NCBI GenBank assembly: GCA_044892505.1
Contig: CM097882.1
Span: forward strand, 331,638,001-331,702,000
Direction of reading: 5' to 3'
Source of the DNA: Schmidtea nova
Taxonomy: Eukaryota
DNA length: 64,000 nucleotides
In this document: positions 4,801-59,854 of the stretch, piece by piece
Layout: each line of letters opens with the position of its first letter
Position numbering within the stretch: the first letter of the stretch is position 1
Position numbers and translations under genes: made by a program
Notes under the pieces: generated by a model
The model's input: only the letters and a program-made list of their open reading frames with translations
Databases searched by the model: none
What the model was told of the DNA's origin: nothing

Positions 4801-5350
4801 TAATTGATTTTACTATGCTTTAGATTTTTATCGGAAAAATTGAGAGAAAAATTTATTTTAAAACGCTGCCGATCACCTTAATCGATACCCGATTTGAATT
4901 TAAAATTAGAAAATCAAAAGCAGGAACACTTGCTGAAACACTTCTAGAACTTTAACCCTCTTCAAAATGATTGAATTTGATTCTGGTTCGGTTTGGGATC
5001 CACCATTTGGTCCACATTTGACATAAAAATAATAATAATAAGAAAAACAAATAAGAATAAAGAAATATTAATGTACTTAAATAAATATCAGTAAAAATGA
5101 ATTAAAAGTAATAAAAAATATTAATTTAATATCAAAAATTAGAAGAAAATAAATGGAAAATGTCAAAATGTTAAAGAAAAAATGATATTTAATTATATTT
5201 AAAGCAAAATATAAAAAGTAATAAAGGAAAAAGAATTACTAAAATTCTTAAATCAAAATAAGAAAAGTTAGCGATTTAAAACAAATTAAATCGATTTTAC
5301 TTTTTAGAAAAATTTATTATTTATATTGATATGATGATCAGCTTCAAGCT

Positions 5351-5960: not shown

Positions 5961-6745
5961 ATACTGTGCCGAGTAGAATGACTGCTCCGTACAGTTAGGC
6001 CGTCCGACCGGTGTAAAAGCGCCGCAGGGAGGGTAGGATTTTTACTAACCATGATCACTAACAATTTTTATTACTGGATAGTATAACCAGCTGGAGTTTT
6101 ATTTTATGATAGATTTGGTTATTATGAATTCGAATTTAAGTTTGATTTGGTTATTATGAATTCGAATTTAAGTTTGATTTTTAACAATAATAGATGTGAT
6201 TATTATTGACCTGATTTGACATTTGGTTAGTAAAATAGTATCCTATTTTTTGATTGTCACATCTGGGGTTTGTGGGCACAAAGCGGCAGATACAATGTAT
6301 AGAAATTCGTACAAAATACACCTTCTAACACAACAACATCAAAGAAAAATCGATAACTTTAATAGCGTAGTGATCTACCACGCAAGCAGAATATTATCAA
6401 TAGGCTAAAGGATCACATATTCAACACATATAATTAATATAATTGATTATCCTGAACCCTGTACATAGGGCAGTAGATCATAGTTGTATCTTTAATAATT
6501 TATTATCCTGATTGCTGTACATAGCACAGGCGTGAATAAATAAAATATATTATCAAATGAATGTATCTGATCGCTGTACATAGCGACAGTGTTGAAAGTA
6601 TAATATGAATATCATTTTCTTCTCCTGAATTGAAAACTAATGGACGTAAAAAATCATGAGATATATTTAAACCAGAGAAACCTAGTTCATATTAATATTA
6701 AATTCTAGAAAAATTTCATTCCACTCAACAACTCCTCAAACAGAA

Positions 6746-7303
6746 TTGGACAAGGCATGGCGTATTATCCGCAGCCTGGAGAAAGAGATGTTGCGAAAAT
6801 CCGAAAAGATAAAAGAAGCCGATGTTATGATTTCAAATTTAAAGAAGAGCTGGTTAAGTCCAGAGCAAATGAAGGCGCAAATTATCAAAAATCAACGCTC
6901 ACAGCGAGCAAACGACGAAATAAAGTTGGAACTGGATGCGACTAAGATGGAGCTGAAGAAATGCCTAAAATCAGTGACAGCTGCTTATCTCGACCAGGAG
7001 TTAAGACAACTCATCAGACCAATTACCTATCAGCATTGGGCTGAAGAGAAATCAGGATGTTCGAAAGGAACGAATACTGATGAACCATCTCAGGTTCAAG
7101 CAATAACAGCATCAAACACACCAAAAAGCGCTACAAATCCAGAAGTCAAAAAGAAGAAGAAGAGTAAGATGGGCGCGCGTCAGCGTCGATGGAAGAAGCA
7201 AGTACTTCAACAATTGGCACAACATTCAAAAGAAACTCCGGAGATCGATTTGACAATGAACTTTGTAGTTTCCGACGAAGACATTATTAAATATTTTGAA
7301 TAG
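6746..7303 (+). CDS. ORF2-family orphan protein (coiled coil, ELRxLIRPIT motif, Arg/Lys-rich segment), open frame; true start uncertain
   Basis: 185-aa ORF aligning by eye with the ORFs at 15868, 18196, 40225 and 44994. Confidence 0.8.
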   Translation: MDKAWRIIRSLEKEMLRKSEKIKEADVMISNLKKSWLSPEQMKAQIIKNQRSQRANDEIKLELDATKMELKKCLKSVTAAYLDQELRQLIRPITYQHWAEEKSGCSKGTNTDEPSQVQAITASNTPKSATNPEVKKKKKSKMGARQRRWKKQVLQQLAQHSKETPEIDLTMNFVVSDEDIIKYFE

Positions 7304-7637: not shown

Positions 7638-7888
7638 GCGTAAGTCCTTCTATCGGCAGCGAGACGAACCCGTGAACATAAATGGGGAGTAGTTTTAGCA
7701 ATAGAGCTCACCTTCCCATCATTGTTCAAACACCTTGCACATTTCCAACTCGATTATTACAGGGAAATGGTCGAAGGTGCTCGTGTGATATGTAAGCATT
7801 TTATGTTAGGTCTTGGATGGAGGAATCCCTAGAGCGTTTAATAATTGTTTTATCTTTTTGTTTTAACCCATCCAAAAACACCACAACA
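7638..7888 (+). ncRNA. 3' structured RNA module, copy A
   Basis: gcgtaagtccttctatcggcagc block; GTTTTA-GCAA-TAGAGC hairpin; TTGGATGG/CCATCCAA terminal stem. Confidence 0.7.
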
Positions 7889-8091: not shown

Positions 8092-8316
8092 GCAATAAAC
8101 TTTCTATCGGTAGCCCTTGAACCCATTGTGATGTTCATTCAATCATAGTTTCGATTTTTCAACGCTCACTGTTTGCGAACATCCATCCATTTGTTGCATT
8201 ACCAACGTTACATTATGACGGGCAACAAGATGGGTTTGCCTAATGTTTTATGTATTGAGTTGTTGATGATGAGCCACAGCAACATCAAAGTCAGGTTGAT
8301 GGTCAACAGCCCACCA
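8092..8316 (+). ncRNA. 3' structured RNA module, subtype II (copy I), ending CCCACCA
   Basis: ctttctatcggtagccc block; CATTA-CC-AA bulged hairpin; homologous to 19520-19741 and 49065-49286. Confidence 0.65.
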
Positions 8317-15867: not shown

Positions 15868-16290
15868 ATGTCAAACATGAACGTAGATAGGAACGATCCA
15901 GGCATAGGGATCCTAAAGAGGAGAGTTGTAGAGCTGGAAGGTACATATTTTTAACCAGCCGATATGAAGATACAACTATTCAATTTAGCCCGGATGCGAG
16001 AAGCGAATGATGACCTCAAGTTAGGGCTCGAAGTTGTCCGGATCGAGTTGAGGAAGTGTAGAAAATATATTACGGGAAGATTCGTAAGGGAAGAGCTAGA
16101 GAGCCTAATCAGACCATTAACTCTATCTGAGTGGTACCCAGAGGCCGCCGCCATTAAACACTACGAGATAGAAGTACATGGACCACCGCCGAAGAGGAAG
16201 CGGAAGAGGATTAGTTCTAAAAAACGGCAGAGATGGAAAAGACAGAGGATGGAGGAAGAAAACAAACGACTTGTGTCCGAAGACGTGTAA
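15868..16290 (+). pseudogene. ORF2-family protein with one in-frame TAA
   Basis: MSNMNVDRNDPGIGILKRRVVELEGTYF*PADMKIQ...EELESLIRPLT...KRKRKRISSKKRQRWKR. Confidence 0.75.
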
Positions 16291-16481: not shown

Positions 16482-16684
16482 GCAAAAGCCTTCTATTGGT
16501 TAGTAGGGAAAAATCGAGAGTAGTTTTTGTAAAGAAGCTCACCTGCCGATTCACATTCGCCTGTTTTGAACATCACCATCGTAAGTAGTTAGAGTATTTA
16601 CGGGCACATGGACAGTATGATTTTTGTGTTATATTACAACCCTAGATGAAAATAGGAATAAGAAAAACCCAATCGAAACCAGCG
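16482..16684 (+). ncRNA. 3' structured RNA module, copy B
   Basis: AATCG/CGATT stem; GTTTTT-GTAA-AGAAGC; CGTAAGTA/TATTTACG. Confidence 0.65.
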
Positions 16685-16696
16685 AATAAAACCTAG

Positions 16697-16743
16697 CCCT
16701 CGTACCCAAGATTGTCAAGCAAGAGTGAGCGTTGATCTGAGAA

Positions 16744-16814
<71 letters not shown>

Positions 16815-17920
16815 ATTGACTTCCTAAACATTTATGACGAACCGGCTGTTACATTGTTGAACGTCGTTAATTCCATTTGTGAAATAGAGTAATATAACGA
16901 GGAGGCCCGGGATGGCTAATTACTGACCAATTTTATTCGCCGAAGTTCGGGCGACTCCTAATTTTACTAAAAGGTCAAAATTTTAAATCCCAATTAAATT
17001 AAAATTATTAAGCCCAAATTACAAATACATTTAAAATTCTTTATTATTAACACCAAATTACAAATACATTTTTAAATCCCCATCAGTCACATCTAAATTT
17101 AAGGGGTGGGAATGATCGCTGGGGCCCACTACAACAATCCTAAATCCCCCCCATTAAATTTACATTTAATTTTAAATTTTTAAAAATTTTATAATAAAGT
17201 GCGGCGCTATGACCACTACAAGAAATCAGAAGGCTTACCCGCTTTTGCGTGCCACCCCCGCTCTGCTACCCGATCAAAAACCATTAAAGGGGAACTTGCA
17301 AGATTGGGATTTCAACTTTTCACCTCACCCCTCGTTCCCAAGATTGTCAAGCAAGAGTGAGCGTTGATCTGAGAATGCAATATATATATATATATATATA
17401 TGTATAAGACTGACGTCCTAAACATTTATGACGAACCGGCTGTTACATTGTTGAACGTCGTTAATTCCATTTGTGAAATAGAGTAGTGTATCGAGGAGGC
17501 CCGGGATGGCTGATTACTGACCAATTTTATTCACCGAAGTTCAGGCGACTCCTAATTTTAATAAAAGATCAAAATTTTAAATCCCAATTAAATTAAAATT
17601 ATTTAGCCCAAATTACAAATACATTTAAAATTCTTTATTATTAACACCAAATTACAAATACATTTTTAAATCCCCATCAGTCACATCTAAATTTAAGGGG
17701 TGGGAATGATCGCTGGGGCCCACTACAACAATCCTAAATCCCCCCATTAAATTTACGTTTAATTTTAAATTTTTAAAAACTTTATAATAAAGTGCGGCGC
17801 TATGACCACTACAAAAAATCAGATGGCTTACCCGCTTTTGCGTGCCCCCCCGCTCTGCTACCCGATCAAAAATCATTAAAGGGGAACTTGCAAGATTGGT
17901 ATTTCAACTTTTCACCTCAC
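16697..17920. repeat. Tandem duplication of a ~600-630 bp unit containing a TA tract
   Basis: Units start ccctcgt(a/t)cccaagattgtcaagc at 16697 and 17329 and are highly similar. Confidence 0.9.
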
Positions 17921-18195
17921 TTCGGCCCCTCGGGAAGGAATACGAGATCAGTCAACCGGAGTTCTCACTGGAAAATATACGCCGTGCACCCATAAATCAA
18001 TGGCTCCACGAAGCTTATGTCTTCGGCAGCGCATAATCATCGAACGAACTATTTGTGTGCCATAGCATCTAATAAATTCGAATTTTGAATTTAGTTTTAT
18101 TGATTAGGCTAATTTTTTTCATTTCATAGAATAGAATGTTCATTAATACCAAATAAAAATTTCCATAAATAACCATTAATTAAAGTACCTTCAGT

Positions 18196-18789
18196 ATGAA
18201 CCAGGAAACAAGCCAACAAAAATAACTCGATAAAATGTGGAGGATTAAAAGGGCTCAAGAGAGGGAGCTAGAACAATTAAAGGCCCAACTGGCAAAGGTA
18301 CAAGCCCAAGTACAGTATGTAAGGAAGAGCTGGTTTGCGCTAGCCCGAATAAAAGAGCAGATAACCCGAACCAAACGGGCGCAGCTGACAGCGGATGATT
18401 ATAAAGTAGAGTGGGAGGCCACCAAAATAGAAATGAGAAAGTGCCTCCGCTCAGTGACAACTTCTTTTATCGTAAAAGAGTTGCGGTCTCAAATTAGACC
18501 TATAACATATCATAATTGGGTGACGTAAAGAAAACCGACTTGTTTAGTTGGAACCGATATAGAAGGCCTAAGTTCCACGATAGCGTCAAGTCCAGCAGAA
18601 CCTCCAAAAACAATAAGCTCCACAGGCGGAGTTAGGAAAAGGAATAGGATTGGTTCAAAGCGTAGGCGTCAAAAGAAGTTGTTTGCACAGCAACTACATG
18701 CGCAAATCGAACACCTGACGAATCTAGGCAACAACGAATTATTGGCAGAGGTTTTTTCCATGGAAGGAATTTTTGAGGAGTTTTTGTAA
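18196..18789 (+). pseudogene. ORF2-family protein with two in-frame TAA codons (copy C, 5'-truncated element ending at 19208)
   Basis: MNQETSQQK*LDKMWRI...ELRSQIRPITYHNWVT*RK...RKRNRIGSKRRRQKKLFAQQL. Confidence 0.8.
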
Positions 18790-18975: not shown

Positions 18976-19208
18976 GCGTAAGACCTTCTAACGGCAGCGT
19001 GAACCCGCGAAAATAAATGGGGAGTAGTTCTAGCAGTAAAACTCACCTGCCCATCATTTTTTCAACCACCCTGCGCATCACCAACTTAACTGCATAGGGA
19101 AATAGTTAAGGGCGCTCGTGTGGAAGTTGCAAATGTTTATGTATGGTCATCGGGTATCCCTAGCATAATTACGTGTTGATTGTTTTCGGCCCACCCATAA
19201 ACCCAGCA
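18976..19208 (+). ncRNA. 3' structured RNA module, copy C, ending AAACCCAGCA
   Basis: gcgtaagaccttctaacggcagc; ATGGG/CCCAT; CTTAACTG/TAGTTAAG. Confidence 0.7.
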
Positions 19209-19519: not shown

Positions 19520-19741
19520 TGGTGGGTTGTTGATCGTCAATATGACCTTGACGTTGCTATGGCTCTCATCAACAACTCAACACATAAAACATTGAAATAA
19601 CCATCTTGCTACCCGTCACTATGTAACGTTGGTACTGTAACAAGTGGGTAGGTATTCGCAATCAGTGAGCGTCGTCAATACGAAACTATGATTGACCGAA
19701 TATCTCCTGTGTCCAGGGGCTACCGATAGAAGGTTTAATGC
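19520..19741 (-). ncRNA. 3' structured RNA module, subtype II (copy J)
   Basis: CCTTCTATCGGTAGC; CAATCA-TA-G..C-TCAC-TGATTG; CTTGTTA-CAGTA-CC-AA-CGTTAC/GTGACG-GG-TAGCAAG; GTTGTTGAT/ATCAACAAC. Confidence 0.7.
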
Positions 19742-37014: not shown

Positions 37015-39433
37015 TAAACAAAAGTATCTGGATATATTTAAAAAACCATGTTTTTTTTGCGTTTAGAAATGAGGCGAAGGAAAGTAATGGACAAACACGG
37101 TTTTATTTATGGTATTTAAGACGAAATAATATGCCGTGGTTAATCATGGCTCAAATTGTAAGCCTCATTTCTTATGAAGTATTTAGTTGTGTGTCAAATT
37201 TTTTGTCTTTGTGATTGTTTTTGTGTGTATTTTGATTGGCAGTTTATTTGTGTGTGCATAAATTCATTTTGAGTTTTTTATTATTGATTGCATTTTGTTC
37301 ATGGAAGCTAGTTTTAGGATTTGAATCAAACTTTCTTTGGCCGTGAGTAGTTTCCCTAATGTTTAAAATAAAATTTAAAGGTGTGACGTTGAATTTGTCT
37401 TCTTTAAATCATGATAGTGCTCTTGGTAATTTGAAATCTGTAATGTGTGAGGAGGTATCTGTTGTTCCAGAAACCAAAAATATTTGGAATAAAACCTTCA
37501 CCAGGATTTATTTCTGATGAATTGACATTTAACAACATATTGTTTCCGTCTAACTCCAAAATCATGCTTATTGGTTCAACTGACGAGCAAGAAAAATTTG
37601 TGACAAGAGATTTAATGATTTAGATGAGTTGAACGAAGATCAAGAATAAGATGAATTAAAAGTAGATATTTGTGAAAGATCTGAATATGCTGCTATAATT
37701 GAAAGACGGATAAAAATATTAATAATAATCAATAAATAGTTACTTTGGATTTCCCAAAAAACTAATCCAAAAAATATAAAAAGAATATGAATAGAATCAG
37801 AGCCAATATTCTTTTTTATCCAAAAAAATAAAAGGCACACTATTAAAATTTATTTCATAACTGTTAATAATAATCAATAAATTGTTACCTTTCAATAAAT
37901 AAACTCATCTAACAAATAAGGATCATTAAATTAAAATAAATGTTGGGCTAACCAAATCACAGAGAAACCCTAAATCAGTAAAAATCAAAATAAAACCACA
38001 ATAAAGTAATAATAAAATTACCAACAGTTCAACAGCGGTTAACAATTCAAAGCATGGAGACCTAAAGAATAATGGTAACAATAGATAAATAATAAATCAT
38101 CAAAAACTTACCCAAGCAAGACATAAACTGACAATGAGTAGGCGGATAGCTGAGCAGAACACGAGAATCTAAAAGAAAATAAATTAAATAAAATTAACGG
38201 TTGAGTGAACAAAAACTCACCGAATTAAACAAGTAAAGATGAGCAGTAAAAATGAAAGGCTTACAATAAGCACAGGCATACTCAAATTTGATTGGCTGGC
38301 TGTCAACACAAATTAGTATATAAGCGGCAGCCCAATTCAGAAAGTTAATGTCATTTTCAGTTACGAACTGTCAGCTTACTTGCGACAAGTGTAAATCAGC
38401 AGAACTTTGTAGTCGCGAATTGAAATCGAAATAAAAGGTACGATTACATTCTTATGTTATGTTATTATTTTAAACCCTCATGATATCTAAAATCAATAAG
38501 GTATCCCGAAGGTCGTCGGATCTGACGGGATTTTGGGCCTCTCAGCGCAACACATTTTCATGTGAGGGTTGATGCGGCGAGTGGATAGGTTTAGTAACTT
38601 TGGGAGTGGTGCACATAGACATCATAGTAGATAATATCATGATGGGATGTAGGCAAGCGTCGCGGTTTGGATGACCTAGCTGAAAAATGTATGTGTATAT
38701 TGCGTAACACAAACAGCATTGGGTGTACGTAGAAAGTCGAGAGATTGTCGACATTATGGAGAGATACACATCGATACCCTCCCTAGAAGACAGGATCGAG
38801 AAAAAGATATAGTAGATCCGCACATTGGAGTAGGTACGACCTAGGATACCCCGAAGGCGAGGCCACTTAACATTTGTGACATTGACCAGCAATGAAATCC
38901 GAGGAGGCACCGTAGAAAAAAGGATTAGTGCCAAAAATTGAAACATTTGCGATTGATCAAGGGAGCAATAATAATTGTCCATAAATAAGTGACCCCGAGG
39001 CAGAACCCTGACTTGCCGATCAGATGACATAATTGACTGAACAAAATGACTGATGTAGGTTGTTGGTTAACTGATGCGATCAGCTATGTCGACACGCATG
39101 ATGCTTCTATGTAAACTATAGGCTACGTGATGATGTCTGAAATGATTGTGGGCGGCTCGTACTACGGCCAGTAGAATGAATATGATGGACATACTGATCA
39201 GTTAATTGGAATTTTTGTGTATGGAATCAATAAAATGACCAGTAGAATGAATATGATGGATATACTGATCAGTTAATTGGAATTTTTGTGTATGGAATCA
39301 ATAAATCAGGTAATCCGTAAATTTGAATTGAGATGACTGAAAGGCATGATTGAATTAGAGGATGATGCAGGAAACGGGAATGTTTGAGGAACACTTCATC
39401 GTTATGAGTAATTAATGCGTTTTTTCTCAGAAA

Positions 39434-39889
39434 ATGAATGCAAAACTCCGTCGAGCATACTACTGCCAATCAACGAAACTGAAGACGAACCAGTCGAACC
39501 CCCTACCCGAAGTCCCTTAATCAATCCAAGCCATAGCTGACCGTCACATGCGTAGATGGAGACGCAGGCATGTGGACTTAAATGCAATACAAGGTTCGAC
39601 AGTATATCACTACCGAGTGCGATGAGAGGGCGAACCCTCCTGGCCGAAATCTGACCATGATCTAACGTCCAAGATGCCATTATGGTTCTTCCAATTCGAG
39701 GATTAGCGAAGCAAGCCTCGCTGAATATTGACTTTTGTGAAGATACCAAATCGGATTCTCCATCAAATGGGATATATATTATTGGAACGCCATATTTGCG
39801 TGCATTCCGGAATATTACGGCCATACGCAAATTCCCCAGGGAATCAAAAGATGAATCAGGAAGAATGGATTCCCGACACTTGTATGTGA
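39434..39889 (+). pseudogene. ORF1-family protein with several stops (copy D)
   Basis: PLPEVP*SIQAIADRHMRRWRRR...YRVR*EGEPSWP...LWFFQF aligns with copy E PLKRAPFEIIQQVHLKMWAWRRE...VWYRGCANWP...EWFVL. Confidence 0.7.
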
Positions 39890-40224
39890 GAGATCTTCGT
39901 ATATGAGGACAAATTATGTTGGATCCCATGCCCAAGTTACTATAACCCCGATGGCACCGGAAAATCGGACCAAACGTGCGTCCAAGAGTGGGTCAAGTTC
40001 GAGGACTGAAATGATGTACATCGCCTCATGTGATTTCGTTGAAATTAATAGAGAAAATAGTTGTTGATTTTCACGAGTTCTGATTGTAGAATAATGAAAG
40101 AATGTGTGAAGGCTTGAACGAATAAGTATGTCTGTTAGAAAAATTTCACGCGGAATCAATGAAGGGGGGAATGATGAGTCGTAGATTGTGGATAAAGCGT
40201 GAATTAACAGGTCTATGATTTTAG

Positions 40225-40778
40225 ATGAGCAATACAGTCAAAAACCCTCATTCCGACGAAAATCAACTCTTACGTAAACGCATAAAAGTGCTGGAAAGTC
40301 ATGTAAAGAAGCCGAAATGAGTCAACTAAAAACGACCTGGTTTCACCCCGAACGGGTCAAAGAAATCCAGCAGCACAGATACCGGGCAGAAAGAGCTTTA
40401 GAGGATCAGGCCAGTGAAACTGCCGCAGTTAAGTTAGAGCTCAATAATTACCTGCGAGCCTCCACGAGAGAATTTATTGAACAATAGTTAAAGCCGCTAA
40501 TACGTACCAGCACCTTCATCCGTTGGGCAGAGTCGATCCATGTAGCTTATGGTATGCAAATGGAAACGAGCTTTACCTCTGTGTTAGAAAGCTTAAAAGA
40601 GATTCCCAAACCGGAAGGATCGCTGCGTACGAAGCGAAGGAATCGTTTAGGTGCGAGAAGGCGTCGCGAAAGGAGAGCCTATGCCGAACGAACAGGAATC
40701 GAGGTGGATTTCTTAAGTGGGATAACCGAAAGGCAGTTGTTGGAAGTCATTAATACGGATGTTTTGTTGGGTAAATAA
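40225..40778 (+). pseudogene. ORF2-family protein with one frameshift and one TAG (copy D)
   Basis: LLRKRIKVLE / LKTTWFHPERVK...EFIEQ*LKPLIRTSTFIRWAE...KRRNRLGARRRRERRAYA. Confidence 0.8.
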
Positions 40779-40955
40779 ATGTTTAGCGTACGAAGCGTTG
40801 TTTTTGACTGAATGTGGAATGCATGGAAAATTGAGTGAATGAGTAGATGATTAAATAAACACAATTCATTTGAAGGCCGAGGGATATTACGAAAATAAAT
40901 CAACTCTAGACGTAGCGGAATCAACAAAATAAATGGGGACCGAAAAAAAACCCAC

Positions 40956-41183
40956 ACAGACCTTCTATCGGTATTGGTGGACTTGTGAATAAATGAGGGA
41001 ATAGTAGCCGCAAGGTTGCTCATCTGCCTCATCATTTCACAACGTTGATACAGTACCATCATGATGAGTAGTTAGGGACACATCATGGGTATCAGTGGGG
41101 GAAGCGTGTTTATGTTGGCGAGATTACCCTGACAATTAACATCCAATAAAATCTCAGTTGAAAAACGTACCAACAAACCAGCA
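40956..41183 (+). ncRNA. 3' structured RNA module, copy D
   Basis: ATGAGG/CCTCAT; GTAGCC-GCAA-GGTTGC; CATGATG/CATCATG; TGTTGG/CCAACA. Confidence 0.7.
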
Positions 41184-43003: not shown

Positions 43004-43980
43004 TGGCCAAGCGCAAGGTTTGTTCAAAATAATTAACGTCTAGAATCCTATTACATTTTTAATGAAATGCGATTTGGTATTCAAAGACGCAAAAAAAAAG
43101 TACTGTATTTATATTTATTTATATCAAATTGTATAACTCTTATAATTAGATAAAAATTCGGACATAATAAAAATAAATCAAAAATATGCATTCATCTCGT
43201 GCATTGCGTTTACTTAATGAACGTCGTCTTTACATCTCTGAAAGTATTCGCAAAGTCAATTAGAAAGTCAAACATATGAAAAATTCGTAAATGACCAATC
43301 GAAGGTAGTAGAAATGCTGTATCGAATTATGCCTACAGATTACACTCGATAATCTTCCGTTGAATTTATACTCTAAATCGCAAACAGTATTAATAGAAAC
43401 TTCTAAAAAAATTTATCTAGACTTTTGAGTATTTAAGATCGCCAAAAGAACCGTATTGAAATTTTATATATACTTTATTTTTAAAAATTCATGGCCAAGC
43501 GCAAGGTTTTTTCAAAATAATTAACGTCTAGAATCCTATTACATTTTTAATGAAATGCGATTTGGTATTCAAAGACGCAAAAAAAAGTACTGTATTTATA
43601 TTTATTTATATCAAATTGTATAACTCTTATAATTAGATAAAAATTCGGACATAATAAAAATAAATCAAAAATATGCATTCATCTCGTGCATTGCGTTTAC
43701 TTAATGAACGTCGTCTTTACATCTCTGAAAGTATTCGCAAAGTCAATTAGAAAGTCAAACATATGAAAAATTCGTAAATGACCACTCGAAGGGTAGTAGA
43801 AATGCTGTATCGAATTATGCCTACAGATTACACTCGATAATCTTCCGTTGAATTTATACTCTAAATCGCAAACAGTATTAATAGAAACTTCTAAAAAAAT
43901 TTATCTAGACTTTTGAGTATTTAAGATCACCAAAAGAACCGTATTGAAATTTTATATATACTTTATTTTTAAAAATTCAT
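43004..43980. repeat. Near-identical 488-bp tandem duplication
   Basis: Units start tggccaagcgcaaggttt at 43004 and 43492. Confidence 0.92.
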
Positions 43981-44433
43981 GTATGATCGGAATTAATTTT
44001 TGTAAAAAACTATAAAATACTTTTATGTCGCAATACATAAAAATTTTAACTTGAATTATTAGATTATAATATGTGTGAATTTAAATTTTTTATTATTATA
44101 AATTTTATAGAATTTCAAATTTGGTCATAAAAATAAAATTTACCTTTATAGATAATATATTATGAAAAAATTAGGATATAAAAGTTATAAATCAAAAATT
44201 TTCTTAGAATAAAAAAATTATAAATCGAAAATAGTATAATATAAAATTTTAAATCAAGAATTTTATTATGATATTGAATATAAAAATTAGGAATTTGGAA
44301 TTTTATTATTATATAAATTTTATGAAATTGTAAATTTAAAATTTTGTAAGAAAAATTACAAAGATAATTGTTGTCATTTTAATAATTAAAATTTAATTCT
44401 AAAAATTATTTTTTATAAATAAATAAATAAATA

Positions 44434-44673
44434 TGATGGGGTTGTGGATGGGTTTGTAAAAAACATATGTTTGAATTGTTGCGTTCTAGGATCTCTCACC
44501 CACAGCCTTGCATAAACTGATCGTCAACACGCGTATGCCCTTGACTATTCCCTATTAGCCAAGTTGGTACTGCATACGGTGGTGGAAAAATGATGGGCAG
44601 ATGAGCTCTTTTACCAGAACTACTCCCCATTTATCTTCCCTCGGGTTCGTGCTGCCGATAGAAGGTCTTACGC
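44434..44673 (-). ncRNA. 3' structured RNA module, copy E
   Basis: Nearly identical to copy F over ~150 nt; TGTGGGTG/CATCCACA terminal stem. Confidence 0.7.
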
Positions 44674-44993: not shown

Positions 44994-45578
44994 TTATTTC
45001 ATAAAATCCAAGTCGATTTCGTCCATCAGTTCTAATTTTGTTAACGCGCTTAATCGATCTATCTGCATATTCATCCGCTTGGCAAATTCTCGGCGACGAC
45101 GTCTTTGTCGCGATCCTAATCGGGTTTTTCGGGTTTGATGGATCATCCTTGCAGGAAGTTCTGGTTTTGGTTGGATATCGTGGGGTGTGGAGGAAATGTC
45201 CACGACCGGGCTCGGTTCCATGTTATGATCGTTCTCGGTTCCTGTTGCAATTTCCCGATATTGACCCTCTGTCCATCGCCGGGCTGTAATTGGGCGAATC
45301 AGTGCCCGCAATTCGCTATCAATATAGCTTTTCGTCACGGAATTTAGGCAATTTCGTAGTTCCCTTTGTACGGCATCCAGCTCCGTCTTGGTTTCGGCCA
45401 AAGCTTCCTGCATTTTAGCCATTTTCGACAGTTGAGTTTTCATTTGATCTGGAGAAAACCAACGAGTCTGAAGTTCTTCATTTGCGACCCTGAGTCGCTT
45501 GATCTGTCGTTTTTGGTCTCTCATTTTTCGTTCTTGGACTTGATTGGTAAATTCCCTGGACTTTTCGATGGAATTCAT
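44994..45578 (-). CDS. ORF2-family orphan protein, intact 194 aa
   Basis: ATG to stop open; WFSPDQMK, ELRNCLNSVT, ELRALIRPIT, RLGSRQRRRRREFA. Confidence 0.85.
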   Translation of the reverse strand: MNSIEKSREFTNQVQERKMRDQKRQIKRLRVANEELQTRWFSPDQMKTQLSKMAKMQEALAETKTELDAVQRELRNCLNSVTKSYIDSELRALIRPITARRWTEGQYREIATGTENDHNMEPSPVVDISSTPHDIQPKPELPARMIHQTRKTRLGSRQRRRRREFAKRMNMQIDRLSALTKLELMDEIDLDFMK

Positions 45579-49064: not shown

Positions 49065-49286
49065 GCATTAAACCTTCTATCGGTAGCCCTTGGACCCAGG
49101 AGATATTCGGTCAATCATAGTTTTGAATTTTCGACACTCACTGATTGCGAATACCCACACATTTGTTACATTAACAACGTTACATTGTGACAGTCAACAA
49201 GATGGTTAATCCAATGTTTTGTATATTGAGTTGTTGATATGAGCCATAGCAACGTCAAGGTCATATTTACGATCAACAACCCACCA
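49065..49286 (+). ncRNA. 3' structured RNA module, subtype II (copy K)
   Basis: Homologous to J and I; TATTCG/CGAATA and GTTGTTGAT/ATCAACAAC stems. Confidence 0.68.
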
Positions 49287-52140
49287 GTTATTTTGAATAA
49301 AAAATAAGATGATATCGATGTAAGTTGAAAAAAATCCGTTATATATATATATATATATGTTTATGAAATAGTGAAAAAACATGAATTTGTTTTTGTCGGA
49401 AATATATTTAACATTAATTTACCTGAATTGTTCAAAAATGAAAATCCCAATGATGTAGGTATATATTAACAGAAGTAACATTGCACGACAATTGTTAACA
49501 AGAAAATATACAATTAAAAATTACTAGTAGACTTGCAGACTATACTGTATTTACTCAAAGGGTGCCGCTTATTTTAAATAGTCAACACTGCTGCTTATCA
49601 AATCTTATTATTCTGTCGATCTAGTAAGCTTTTGTAGTTAATCGTTTCTAGTTAGTAATTTAAATAATTTCGCTCATTAAAATTTGGCAAATGTCACAAT
49701 AAATTTGATGATTTTTATAGTCTTAGGGGGCCCATCAGCTATCTATGTAGGCGCGTGATTGACACTTATCGAAAAAATACCTTGTCCCTGTATTTCCAAT
49801 GCAAATTTTATAACCAATCTACGACCCATCAGGTGATTTATTTCCTCGCAAATACTTTTAGACAGATATGATGCTTTTTACTAGTATTGCTCAACTTCGA
49901 TCTGCATTGCTCTAAAAATGTGTCAAACTTCACCATGAGCTCCAAAATGCCCATTTGGTTATTGATTGTAACGTTCCGCGGAGGACATTGAAGTATAAAT
50001 ACTTAATAAGGGGTTGTGATCTGTGTTATTCTTGTGTTCTGGTACTCGAATATGACAATTTATCCAATCACTAAGCCAATTTCTAAACCCAGACTCCTGA
50101 CAACTAAATAATCTATAACAAAGACAAAATACCTCGCCCAATGAAAGCGAACCATTTCTTTTTGTTGGGCTGGTACAATCCAGTTTTACAACAAATATCA
50201 GCACGATAATAGGGAAATCAGTACAATAATAAAAAATAATTAAATATAAATAAAACTTCTTCATAGACATGTGTAAATCCGATTGTCTGAATTTAAAGGA
50301 GAGTAGTCGAGGTAACGCACCTCACCTGTTCTCTAATTCCAAAAGCCCTCATACACAGTTCCAACGTAATTATCGAGAATGATTACGTGTTTACAGACAA
50401 AAGATGGTTAATTTTCTTGCTTTTTTCATTTTTTAAAATTTTTTCTTAGTTTGATGGTAGATTGAAAGCCTAGACACAATATTTGAGTAATTCTACCACA
50501 ACTAGACCAACACCTTTTTACAATTTCTTTGTTGAATAAAGGTCGTGCCTAAATATCGCTTCTGCTTCTTATCAATCATCTCGGAAGCGTCAAAATTTCC
50601 TATTTTTGCTGAATTGGTAGATTCATTTTAAACTCACGTACAATATCGTCAATAATTTTTCAGTTTGGAAGATTTTTCTCAAACGCTTTTTATTCGATGC
50701 AAAGCTGGACGGCAGATTCTGCAAAAGATAAAACGACGGAGGTGATCGCCTTAGATTGTTCAGCTCAAGCAGCCTCTTCTTCAAGTTCTATTTTCTGTTG
50801 TGCCTTCCTCGTCGTCAAAATGGCTGTAAACTGCTGGCGTTTGTACAAAGAAAGTTATTAATTTCGGAATGCTCAACTGTTCTGCAGATTGTATTTTTCA
50901 CTTTTTAACCCCCTTCTTATCATACACCCCTTCTATCATACAGCATATATGAAACACTCTTTTATTAGGCCCTAAATGAGAAACGGCTTGGTAAATGTAT
51001 TATTAATGAAAATATTATAAAATAAAATTTATCAGCAATATTTAAAAAGTAATTTAAATAAAATATAGATAGAAATTGAAGCTTAAAATAAAATATCAAT
51101 CAATAGTTCAATATAATCCATCAAATTAGTTACAATTATGCGAAAAAATTTACGTGTTACTTTTCTTCTCATTTCGTCCTGTCCGTTGTAATGTTTAAAT
51201 AAGATTATGATAGTGTCCGTTTAGTGATTATGCCGTTGTTAACAAACCCACAATATTCCGAAAACGAAAAGGATGGTAAGATGATTAATCGTGAACAGTA
51301 CAACGTTTTTCAATGATGATCACATGATCGCCAAATGTATCTATAAAATGTCGGCTTTTCATTTATACATCTGCTACACTTCTTGTTAATTGTTCTTAAG
51401 CTACTTGCCAGTATTAGCTATCACTTTCAGCTATTTTACATCATTAAAACTTATGCATCTGTAGTGTTCTTTCGCTCCTTTAGTTAATTTCAAAAAATTA
51501 TCAATTTAGTCCCTATAAAATATTTAATACGATTTTGGGTGCTCCTTCCAAACTTTACCTTAATGGCTATTTCTCCATTGTCAATAAGTAGTAAAATGAA
51601 AATTTGTGTATGATTGTAGTTATACTTGTTTAATAAAAATTGTAATTTAAGTAATAAAATGTTAAAAAACTTAAAATATATTAGTTAATAAATTCTAAAA
51701 ATTCAAAAAATTAATCAATTTATATATTAAAAAACTCATTATTAGAATTTGAGGAACGTTTATTAGAAGTCTCAATTTTATAATTAAAATTACTTTTGTT
51801 CCATATTTTATTAAGTCGGTTGTGAATTATTTATTAAATTATAATAATATATGTCCTTGTTCTCTTTTCAGATCATATCTGACCGAATTTGTATCAGACA
51901 TGTAACTAGTATAACGTATACCAACATAACTCATACTTTTACATTCTAAACACATCATAATATGCATTATTCCAAAATTTAAAAATTGTTTTCTTAATCA
52001 TCATTTTTTATAACAAAAATAGCTTTGGTTGATAATAGATATTTTATATTATAACTTTTTAAAATAAATTTTAAACAAACAAATATGGTTATAGATACCA
52101 TAAGATATTTTCATTTTTATGAGACTAGATCAGGGTGCTC

Positions 52141-58491: not shown

Positions 58492-59854
58492 TGTTGGGCT
58501 GGTGAAATCAAAAATAAATTTAATTAAAAATTATTAAAAATTAAATACATACAAAAAGAAACAAAGAGAAACGCACGACAAGACGTTAAGCAGTAAAATA
58601 ACGCAAGGGAAAATAAAAACAGTTAAGTACAATAGTAGTCATACGAACCGCATCCTTTAAGTCGGTCAAGATAGGGTTGAAGCGATAAAAAAGAGGAATC
58701 TCAAAAGAGAGCACACAATTTGAGTGCAGGTCGGATTTACACACGAAGGACCGCACGAGAATTGAATGTGGAAGATCAGTGCTTGTAAAGTGATTATGAA
58801 AAGCATGATCAAAGAATAAAATCGGTATCAGAATAAAGAAAATAATTTATTAAAAATTATAGAATAAATCCCCATTGAAATATCGCAAAATTAACAGAGA
58901 TAGGAATGTAAATAGATTTAAAATTAAATTGTTTTAATCAATAAATGCACAATAAAACAATAGATACACACCTAATTTAATATAATAAATATTTTCGAAA
59001 ATAAATAAATCAAATTATAAAGTTAAATTTATGAAAGATAAATAAATGCTCACTTATTAAAACTAATAAGTGAGTTAAAATCATTAATAAATTATGTAAA
59101 TAACAAAATATGTAAGTGTCAGTGAAATTAGTATAAATAGATATTGAAAAATCACAATCAAAACTTACTTGGCATTAATTTACTGAAAGCAAAAATTTGG
59201 TTTTGATTTCGCCAGTCGTGTGGATCGATTTTAAGCAGGTATTTTTGTTATTTTGGTGATATGTGTTGGGTCAATTGTTGTTCAATGGTCACAATAAAGT
59301 TTTGAGGCTAAATCTTTGCTTAAGGGATTCCCGATTAAAATCTGAATAGGGGCGTCCCTCTGTGGTGCAATCCACGAGGGTGAATCCGTGGCTGTGGAGC
59401 TCAGTAGTTCCACGTCATGGTGAGTGACTAAATTATTAAAACTAGAATAGTAAATAATTTGTAAGGGCGGCGAATGCACACGGGATATTCTAAGTACGAA
59501 TGTACACCAAATGTTTTATTAGTTACGAATACACATAGGTAGTTAGTTGTGGTCAACCACCAAGTCACGTAGGATATGGTTATTAAATTGAGAGCTAGAG
59601 ATCGAGCGAAATTTAAGTCGACGGATATAAAGAATCAAGCGTAAGACCTTCTATCGGCAGCACGAACCCGAGGGGAAAATAAATGGGGAGTAGTTTTGGT
59701 GACGGAGCTCACCTGCCCATCATTTTTCCACACCGTATGCAGTACCAACTTGGCTAATAGGGAATAGTCAAGGGCATACGCGTGTATTAGTCATTTTATG
59801 TAAGGTTATGGGTGCGGAATCCCTAGTATTTAAAACCCACCCATAAACCCAGCA
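58492..59854 (+). mobile_element. TG..CA element copy F (1363 bp, no recognisable ORF1/ORF2)
   Basis: TAAA|TGTTGGGCTG...AAACCCAGCA|TAAA; TATAAATA at 59132; complete 3' module. Confidence 0.85.
59639..59854 (+). ncRNA. 3' structured RNA module, copy F
   Basis: GTTTTG-GTGA-CGGAGC; CTTGGCTA/TAGTCAAG; TATGGGTG/CACCCATA. Confidence 0.72.

Follow-up and report, generated by a model that had tools for sequence, protein, structure and literature searches.

A conserved U5 fold in giant gypsy LTR retrotransposons of Schmidtea nova, with a likely loop–partner contact and complementarity to primer tRNA-Pro

The window analysed here, a 64,000-nt stretch of the Schmidtea nova genome, contains a repeated RNA fold, of which a covariance model recovered 10 copies at E below 0.001. 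Six of them, copies A to F, had been proposed to carry a domain-3 loop that kisses a downstream partner site, and every loop and partner motif quoted in the initial annotation was indeed found at its position. The four further, distant copies show no loop–partner complement (0/4). Copy D forms the U5, or 3′ end, of a family-D solo LTR whose final base is 41183, and the fold occupies the last 200–240 nt of the LTR (Table 1). Rfam at its gathering score returned 0 matches in the window, and ARAGORN returned 0 tRNAs. A related ORF of about 200 aa lies upstream of the fold in the LTRs (6710–7300, 15925–16257, 18190–18696, 40305–40532 and 45111–45533). The window also holds two tandem duplications, of 488 bp at 43004–43981 (99%) and of 632 bp at 16697–17920 (90%).

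Table 1. Positions of the fold, its parts in copy D and its other copies in the window
Feature	Position	Strand	Remarks
Solo LTR, family D, copy D	37941..41183	+	3,243 bp, TG...CA ends, 4-bp target-site duplication TAAA
Domain 1: 3-bp hairpin, conserved 7-nt loop UUCUAUC	40960..40972	+	covariation weak
PAS-like word, complementary to tRNA-Pro nt 49-55 (T-arm 5′ strand)	40979..40985	+	two extra G-U pairs, copy D
Domain 2: long hairpin, conserved UA/UCAC internal loop	40992..41033	+	tetraloop 41010-41013
Domain 3: two stems around conserved CCAA-containing bulge	41046..41094	+
Domain-3 apical (putative kissing) loop	41070..41077	+	predicted unpaired 0.98
Terminal stem to LTR end	41109..41183	+	5′ arm UUUAUG complements LTR end plus the spacer present only at 5′ LTRs
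Partner site CCCUGAC	41127..41133	+	predicted unpaired 0.73
Copy A	7643..7888	+	U5 of LTR starting near 4996; loop 7759-7766, partner 7826-7832
G-type copy	8097..8241	+	kissing loop absent
Copy B	16486..16645	+	loop 16588-16594, partner 16640-16645; one mismatch
Copy C	18981..19208	+	loop 19094-19101, partner 19157-19163
Family G copy	19593..19736	-	same fold, short domain-3 loop, no partner-site complement
Copy E	44432..44668	-	loop 44548-44555, partner 44486-44492
G-type copy	49070..49213	+	kissing loop absent
Distant, decayed copy, family not sampled	50265..50408	+	no loop–partner complement
Copy F	58492..59854	+	solo LTR, duplication TAAA; fold from 59644, loop 59757-59764, partner 59820-59826

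The LTR families belong to giant gypsy elements with a Burro-like architecture. When copy F was searched against its own genome (1.25 Gb), many pairs of same-strand matches 11.5–14.5 kb apart were found; one pair consists of two 1,415-bp LTRs, 100% identical, with TG...CA ends and a 4-bp duplication, in an element with a single gag-like ORF carrying CCHC knuckles. A family-A element of 24.3 kb has 2,761-bp LTRs that are 99.6% identical, and its Pfam domains (PF00098, PF24664, PF00077, PF12796 and PF22486) correspond to Gag, a mononegavirus-type fusion protein, protease, ankyrin and TRAF/MATH; a family-G element carries homologous cargo. Among the four full elements examined, one contains broken pieces of pol, no reverse transcriptase (RT) was detected in the other three, and an intact pol tied to these LTRs was found in none. 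Burro/GYPSM1, the giant gypsy elements of dugesiid planarians, share the CCHC Gag, the mononegavirus-type fusion protein between Gag and protease, the ankyrin and MATH/TRAF domains, and the element and LTR sizes (13–25 kb and 1.4–4.3 kb); the comparison is one of described architecture, and the part of the Burro account available describes no LTR RNA structure (PMC6431247). In S. mediterranea, Burro is de-repressed after smedwi-2 knock-down (PMC8532177). A Polinton-like block, with ATPase-, integrase- and polymerase-like ORFs judged by eye, adjoins family-A elements.

The 5′ LTR is followed, 6–10 nt past its end, by an 18-nt primer-binding site (PBS) that matches the 3′ end of the genome's tRNA-Pro, a sequence common to the TGG and AGG genes. 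This gap is longer than usual; the spacer measures 6 nt (10 nt in family G) and forms part of the terminal stem described below. The tRNA-Pro PBS is visible in families F, A, D, J, N and G, with no other primer among these six, and in family D it follows that family's 5′ LTR. The first long ORF begins about 3–5 kb downstream of the PBS. The genome's tRNA genes lie in long tandem arrays, with tRNA-Pro(TGG) at a 308-bp period and further arrays of Pro(AGG), Lys and Arg, and the tRNA-Pro 3′ pattern has 1,106 matches genome-wide. As for plus-strand priming, the 3′ LTR of families F, A and G is not preceded by a purine run; these families have in common a palindromic hairpin of 13 nt with a G/C-rich word after it, an unusual signal. 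A search for a bipartite 3′ primer site gave none in a family-A element and three scattered 7-mers in F.

The fold is present in at least a dozen LTR families of this genome. Sampling with the model gave 16 matches in 60 evenly spaced 10-kb stretches (600 kb), 10 of them G-type by our own reading, which extrapolates to roughly 30,000 copies. No match to the fold pattern was obtained in metagenome contigs or viral contigs, and no relative was seen outside its own genome. Three of five RT-bearing regions are gypsy elements of 6.5–7 kb with another PBS, presumably tRNA-Leu-like, and no model match at their LTRs; to neither of the other two could an LTR be assigned. The fold was thus found in no family with another primer among the RT-bearing elements examined. 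The 6.5–7 kb elements share a conserved U5 stem of their own.

The nested part of the fold co-varies strongly and is well supported. Across 15 copies from five families, 90.7% of cells are paired and 19 of 31 pairs change on both sides, as scored on a structure drawn by hand from the same 15 sequences; none of 500 shuffles reaches the observed value, and slid controls give 36–39%. In copy D the fold energy has a z of −2.35 with loop and partner both unpaired. We take the domain-2 tetraloop to be a GNRA loop and the domain-1 loop to be T-loop-like. From the GNRA loops and G-U pairs, the folded strand should be the plus-strand RNA; taken with the position, these features would place the fold in R/U5. 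The terminal stem has a 5′ arm that complements the LTR end plus the pre-PBS spacer in five of the six 5′ LTRs examined, the sixth being a decayed copy of family N; in family G a longer spacer goes together with longer terminal-stem pairing. Since this stem pairs with a spacer found only at 5′ LTRs, the domain would be complete only in the 5′ leader.

Several other roles of the fold were considered and set aside. Only families F, A, C and D have the AATAAA ahead of domain 2, which excludes a poly(A) hairpin as a general role; no ORF follows the partner, as an IRES would require; and no Rfam match supports a ribozyme. Nothing was found in favour of the VS ribozyme and SRP Alu domain, likewise without an Rfam match, to which the kissing loop had been compared, whereas the accompanying comparison with a retroelement leader, that of the retroviral dimerisation signals, fits. 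Two internal motifs are present in all copies. The UA/UCAC internal loop of domain 2 (41000–41030), presumably C-loop-like, is kept even in family G despite differing flanking helices; its long strand resembles the 5′ end of U1 snRNA and, read on the minus strand, looks like a splice donor. The CCAA bulge of domain 3 (41052–41059) is similar to the 3′ end of a tRNA and could base-pair with the start of the PBS.

In the loop-bearing families the domain-3 loop and the partner site probably pair, to judge from their sequences. A complement of 5–8 bp occurs in one register in 11 families. To score it, we used fixed-register counts per family, as MAFFT alignment put the loops out of register; nine loop-bearing families were sampled, each by the best 20–30 of its 40 scored matches, with single copies of J and P added, and family K is partly misregistered in these counts. 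Four core positions (A-U, G-C, G-C, G-C) are the commonest state in eight of the nine families (best copies). The loop and partner of copy D had been said to change together, and loop GTTAGGG (41071–41077) and partner CCCTGAC (41127–41133) indeed form 7 bp including one G-U, but the change is confined to the flanks: the core AGGG/CCCU is identical in all loop-bearing families. The single mismatch reported for copy B is also present, although the same position is G-C in 12 of 20 family-B best copies.

Flanking positions vary more freely. Position 3 of the contact is U-A, but U-G in D (29/30 best copies) and a fixed C.A mismatch in A (20/20 best copies). At position 2, families B, N and K have C-G, H and J have U-G, and F, A and C have A.G; U-A occurs in D (29/30 best copies) and M (19/20 best copies), and in all 48 of the D and M best copies with a partner A at this position the loop has U. 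At position 8, four families (F, A, C and H) have A-U and two (B and J) have U-A; D, M, N, K and P leave it unpaired. When loop and partner are left out of the tree, D, M, N and K group together (support 91/96), and therefore at least one double change occurred at position 2 within this group. Covariation over more copies, which had been suggested as a check, thus yields double changes at two to three flank positions but none in the core at the family level. A core double change as compensation came down to one copy (four copies carry a loop variant, three a partner variant and one both) and, being a single copy, was not counted as evidence; an apparent core swap in family H was decay, with G-C in 17–22 of 25 copies per core position.

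Statistical tests of the pairing gave mixed results. Own partners exceeded swapped ones among 11 representative copies, hand-chosen as intact and from related families, with p 0.01 for Watson-Crick pairs, 0.10 with G-U and 0.057 for energy; with the commonest pair per family, the values were 0.07, 0.34 and 0.03. Swapped partners are nearly as strong as own partners (mean −8.7 versus −9.2 kcal/mol per pair). Against shuffled downstream windows, duplex energy reached p 0.05 or less in 29/29 F and 27/30 D best copies, and among best copies of the other, mostly older, families in 8/20 B, 3/20 A, 7/16 C, 10/24 H, 7/18 M, 4/19 N and 3/16 K. By longest helix with G-U pairs allowed, real and shuffled sequences could not be told apart (median shuffle p 0.3–0.99), and the hexamer TAGGGA alone was not enriched (22 versus 19.1 expected). 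In 10 of 12 loop-bearing copies folded, the loop (0.58–1.00) and partner (0.57–0.87) were predicted unpaired, and in the remaining two both were mostly paired; a helix between the two would cross the nested fold, and the energy model pairs them outright in one family-D 5′ LTR.

Taken together, the one-register complement, the predicted-unpaired segments and the double changes in the flanks make a contact likely, with modest covariation among related families, and the kissing contact is less well demonstrated than the initial annotation implied. Its reading as a tertiary fold or a dimer contact stands as regards a loop–loop contact, likely given 11 families in one register, but the sequence fits intra- and intermolecular forms alike. 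It is very improbable that the complement is an ancestral coincidence carried by descent: short G-U-tolerant complements are common in this AT-rich DNA and the families are related, but both segments are near-constant across families whose adjacent stems have turned over. The contact could also be static, an intramolecular strut by which domain 3 is packed against the terminal stem and the leader is positioned, with no primer exchange. Flank covariation does track the element's own loop where that loop departs from the tRNA D arm (D and M), family G, as a derived lineage, changed loop and partner together, and G-C-rich cores are typical of stable kisses. We nevertheless consider such a strut unlikely, as the core is swapped in no family, though neighbouring stems turn over freely, and mismatches are fixed in the young families A and F.

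The invariant core has a second possible explanation in the primer, namely the match of both loop and partner to tRNA. The invariant loop word UAGGG occurs twice in the genome's tRNA-Pro(AGG), once in the D arm and once in the anticodon loop; the domain-3 loop resembles both, and the partner is complementary to both at the sequence level. The partner can pair with the AGG anticodon loop at 6–7 of 7 positions in 11/11 representatives and the D arm at 5–8 of 8, and with G-U counted it pairs with the anticodon loop at least as well as with its own loop in 10/11. Where the loop breaks the pairing (position 3 in A; position 2 in F, A and C), the partner is still complementary to the tRNA, and in 12/12 representatives both U32 and U33 face a partner purine (A or G). 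In its commonest variant the PAS-like word complements 6–7 of 7 nt of T-arm nt 49–55 in 10/10 families, and its family-level changes are G-U compatible; the hexamer occurs also in tRNA-Lys. Of all tRNA sites, those in the T arm and the D arm are complemented best across families, with p 0.08 (6-mers), 0.04 (7-mers) and 0.54 (5-mers) against shuffled tRNA, modest support for a match noticed post hoc. In family B the eight letters right after the PAS-like word complement tRNA-Pro nt 23–30, and shorter matches occur in F and H.

These matches might arise with no loop–partner pairing at all: the loop would mimic the anticodon for prolyl-tRNA synthetase or RT, the partner would bind the primer, and their complementarity would come only from a shared tRNA origin. 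The purines facing U32 and U33 would suit such an arrangement, as would family G, which keeps a partner-like site (0.96 unpaired) without the loop. We consider it quite improbable, since two free, G-C-rich complementary segments 50 nt apart would be expected to pair, as they do in the family-D 5′ LTR model, the loop is 7–10 nt long with AGG at a variable position, unlike an anticodon loop, and partner A goes with loop U at position 2 throughout the D and M copies described above.

Our preferred reading, held tentatively and at somewhat less than an even chance, is that the kiss 5′ of the tRNA-Pro PBS holds the primer's place until the tRNA anneals. In the 5′ leader, the pre-PBS spacer would complete the terminal stem, and loop and partner would kiss within one molecule in place of the primer tRNA. 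With Gag as chaperone, the 18 nt at the primer's 3′ end would anneal to the PBS and the T-arm strand so freed to the PAS-like word; at the partner, the domain-3 loop would then be displaced by the anticodon loop (or D arm) of the primer, which would license minus-strand synthesis. The T-arm 5′ strand is the one freed on PBS binding, and the same strand is the target of the HIV primer activation signal (PMC11251516). In a more elaborate and rather doubtful version, U5 would be a tRNA-unzipping platform with a decoy: a copy of the anticodon loop would kiss a proline-codon site until tRNA-Pro(AGG) displaces it, so that the RNA would select tRNA-Pro(AGG) among identical 3′ ends and gate reverse transcription. 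The separate mimic and anticodon-binding loop of HIV would here be fused into one switch.

Some observations weigh against the placeholder reading. All six families with a visible PBS use tRNA-Pro, and none offers a co-switch of primer and loop; the abundant family G has the same PBS without the loop; and m1G37 would block, and thus cost, one base pair. That modification is expected in tRNAs reading CCN codons, and in MuLV the modified tRNA-Pro is reported to have made no contacts outside the PBS (PMC13191261). Family G is the largest family, with 1,569 pattern matches and the tRNA-Pro PBS in 21 of 25 fetched. Its domain-3 loop has three to five bases, and its partner-like site is not complementary to that loop and has a central mismatch to the anticodon loop as well as to the D arm of tRNA-Pro. 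In the tree that omits loop and partner, the family is a derived branch near F, A, C and H. The kiss is thus dispensable or replaced in this family. Family G also has a 9-nt unpaired site, the first five letters of which are complementary to tRNA-Pro nt 1–5 or to the PBS; by its sequence, this site may replace the kiss.

By analogy with a model for Ty1, loop and partner could instead pair between two genomic RNAs to start dimerisation for packaging; the core would be invariant as families without pol must fit shared helper machinery, and the tRNA likeness would be chance. The contact lies in the 5′ leader and has the same size and non-palindromic two-site design as Ty1 SL1a/SL3a (PMC5454406), swapped partners are of nearly equal strength, and most full elements examined had no detectable RT. 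On the other side, the partner is predicted to lie in an internal or multibranch loop instead of at a hairpin tip, family G lacks the kiss and is abundant nonetheless, and the PAS-like word and tRNA likeness are left unexplained. The spacing to the partner, 11–12 or 20–22 nt (18–20 in K), would also suit a fixed intramolecular geometry, the two classes being about one helical turn apart, but it follows the clades. We regard dimerisation as the main rival, though on balance unlikely; it and the placeholder kiss are not mutually exclusive.

Kissing loops and extended primer contacts are already known from retroelement leaders. In Ty1, two complementary 7-nt motifs form SL1a–SL3a, and Boxes 0, 1 and 2.1 complement the T or D hairpins of the primer (PMC5454406). 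The U5 described here resembles this TIPIRT arrangement in that the 5′ RNA of an LTR retrotransposon combines complementary 7-nt motifs with 6–7-nt primer-complementary boxes; Ty1, however, is a copia-type element with a tRNAiMet primer and boxes 3′ of the PBS (PMC5454406). In the elements described here, every such site is inside the LTR, upstream of the PBS; the partner lies away from any hairpin tip, and a single site carries both the kiss and the tRNA complement. HIV-1 has an A-rich loop and a primer activation signal upstream of the PBS (PMC11251516, PMC13191261) and, near it, a tRNA-like element that mimics the anticodon loop (PMC5113203). The likeness to HIV-1 U5 thus consists of sites 5′ of the PBS for the anticodon loop and the 5′ T arm of the primer, together with a mimic hairpin, but the HIV primer is tRNA-Lys3, and the available parts of these reports do not describe mimic and anticodon-binding loop as pairing with each other (PMC11251516, PMC13191261, PMC5113203). 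In the planarian elements, moreover, the PAS-like word lies about 200 nt from the PBS. Like the Helenus and Cassandra TRIMs, these LTRs contain tRNA-related sequence, but in the TRIMs the tRNA copy is a Pol III promoter that is not PBS-complementary (PMC10886601), whereas here no tRNA gene is called and the matches are short words in a larger fold.

In pseudoknot I of the dicistrovirus IGR IRES, an anticodon-like loop pairs in cis with a codon-like site; in the elements studied here, no ORF follows the partner. We found no description of this U5 fold in Rfam or in the full-text literature searched, with most subscription papers outside the search, and the structured U5 domain is real and apparently undescribed. 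What is new is the loop's likeness to tRNA-Pro(AGG), the complementarity of the partner to that tRNA, the T-arm complement in the upstream PAS-like word and their context of LTR U5 and PBS. The LTR-retrotransposon leader structures in the literature searched are almost all from yeast Ty1 and Ty3, and here a 240-nt, four-domain fold is conserved over at least a dozen LTR families of one animal genome, which provide natural variants with and without the kiss. For HTLV-1, which is also primed by tRNA-Pro, such extra primer contacts have been called unknown (PMC11251516). If the placeholder model is true, it would explain the choice of primer isoacceptor beyond the 18-nt PBS; if dimerisation is, the two-site kissing design of Ty1 would extend to gypsy elements.
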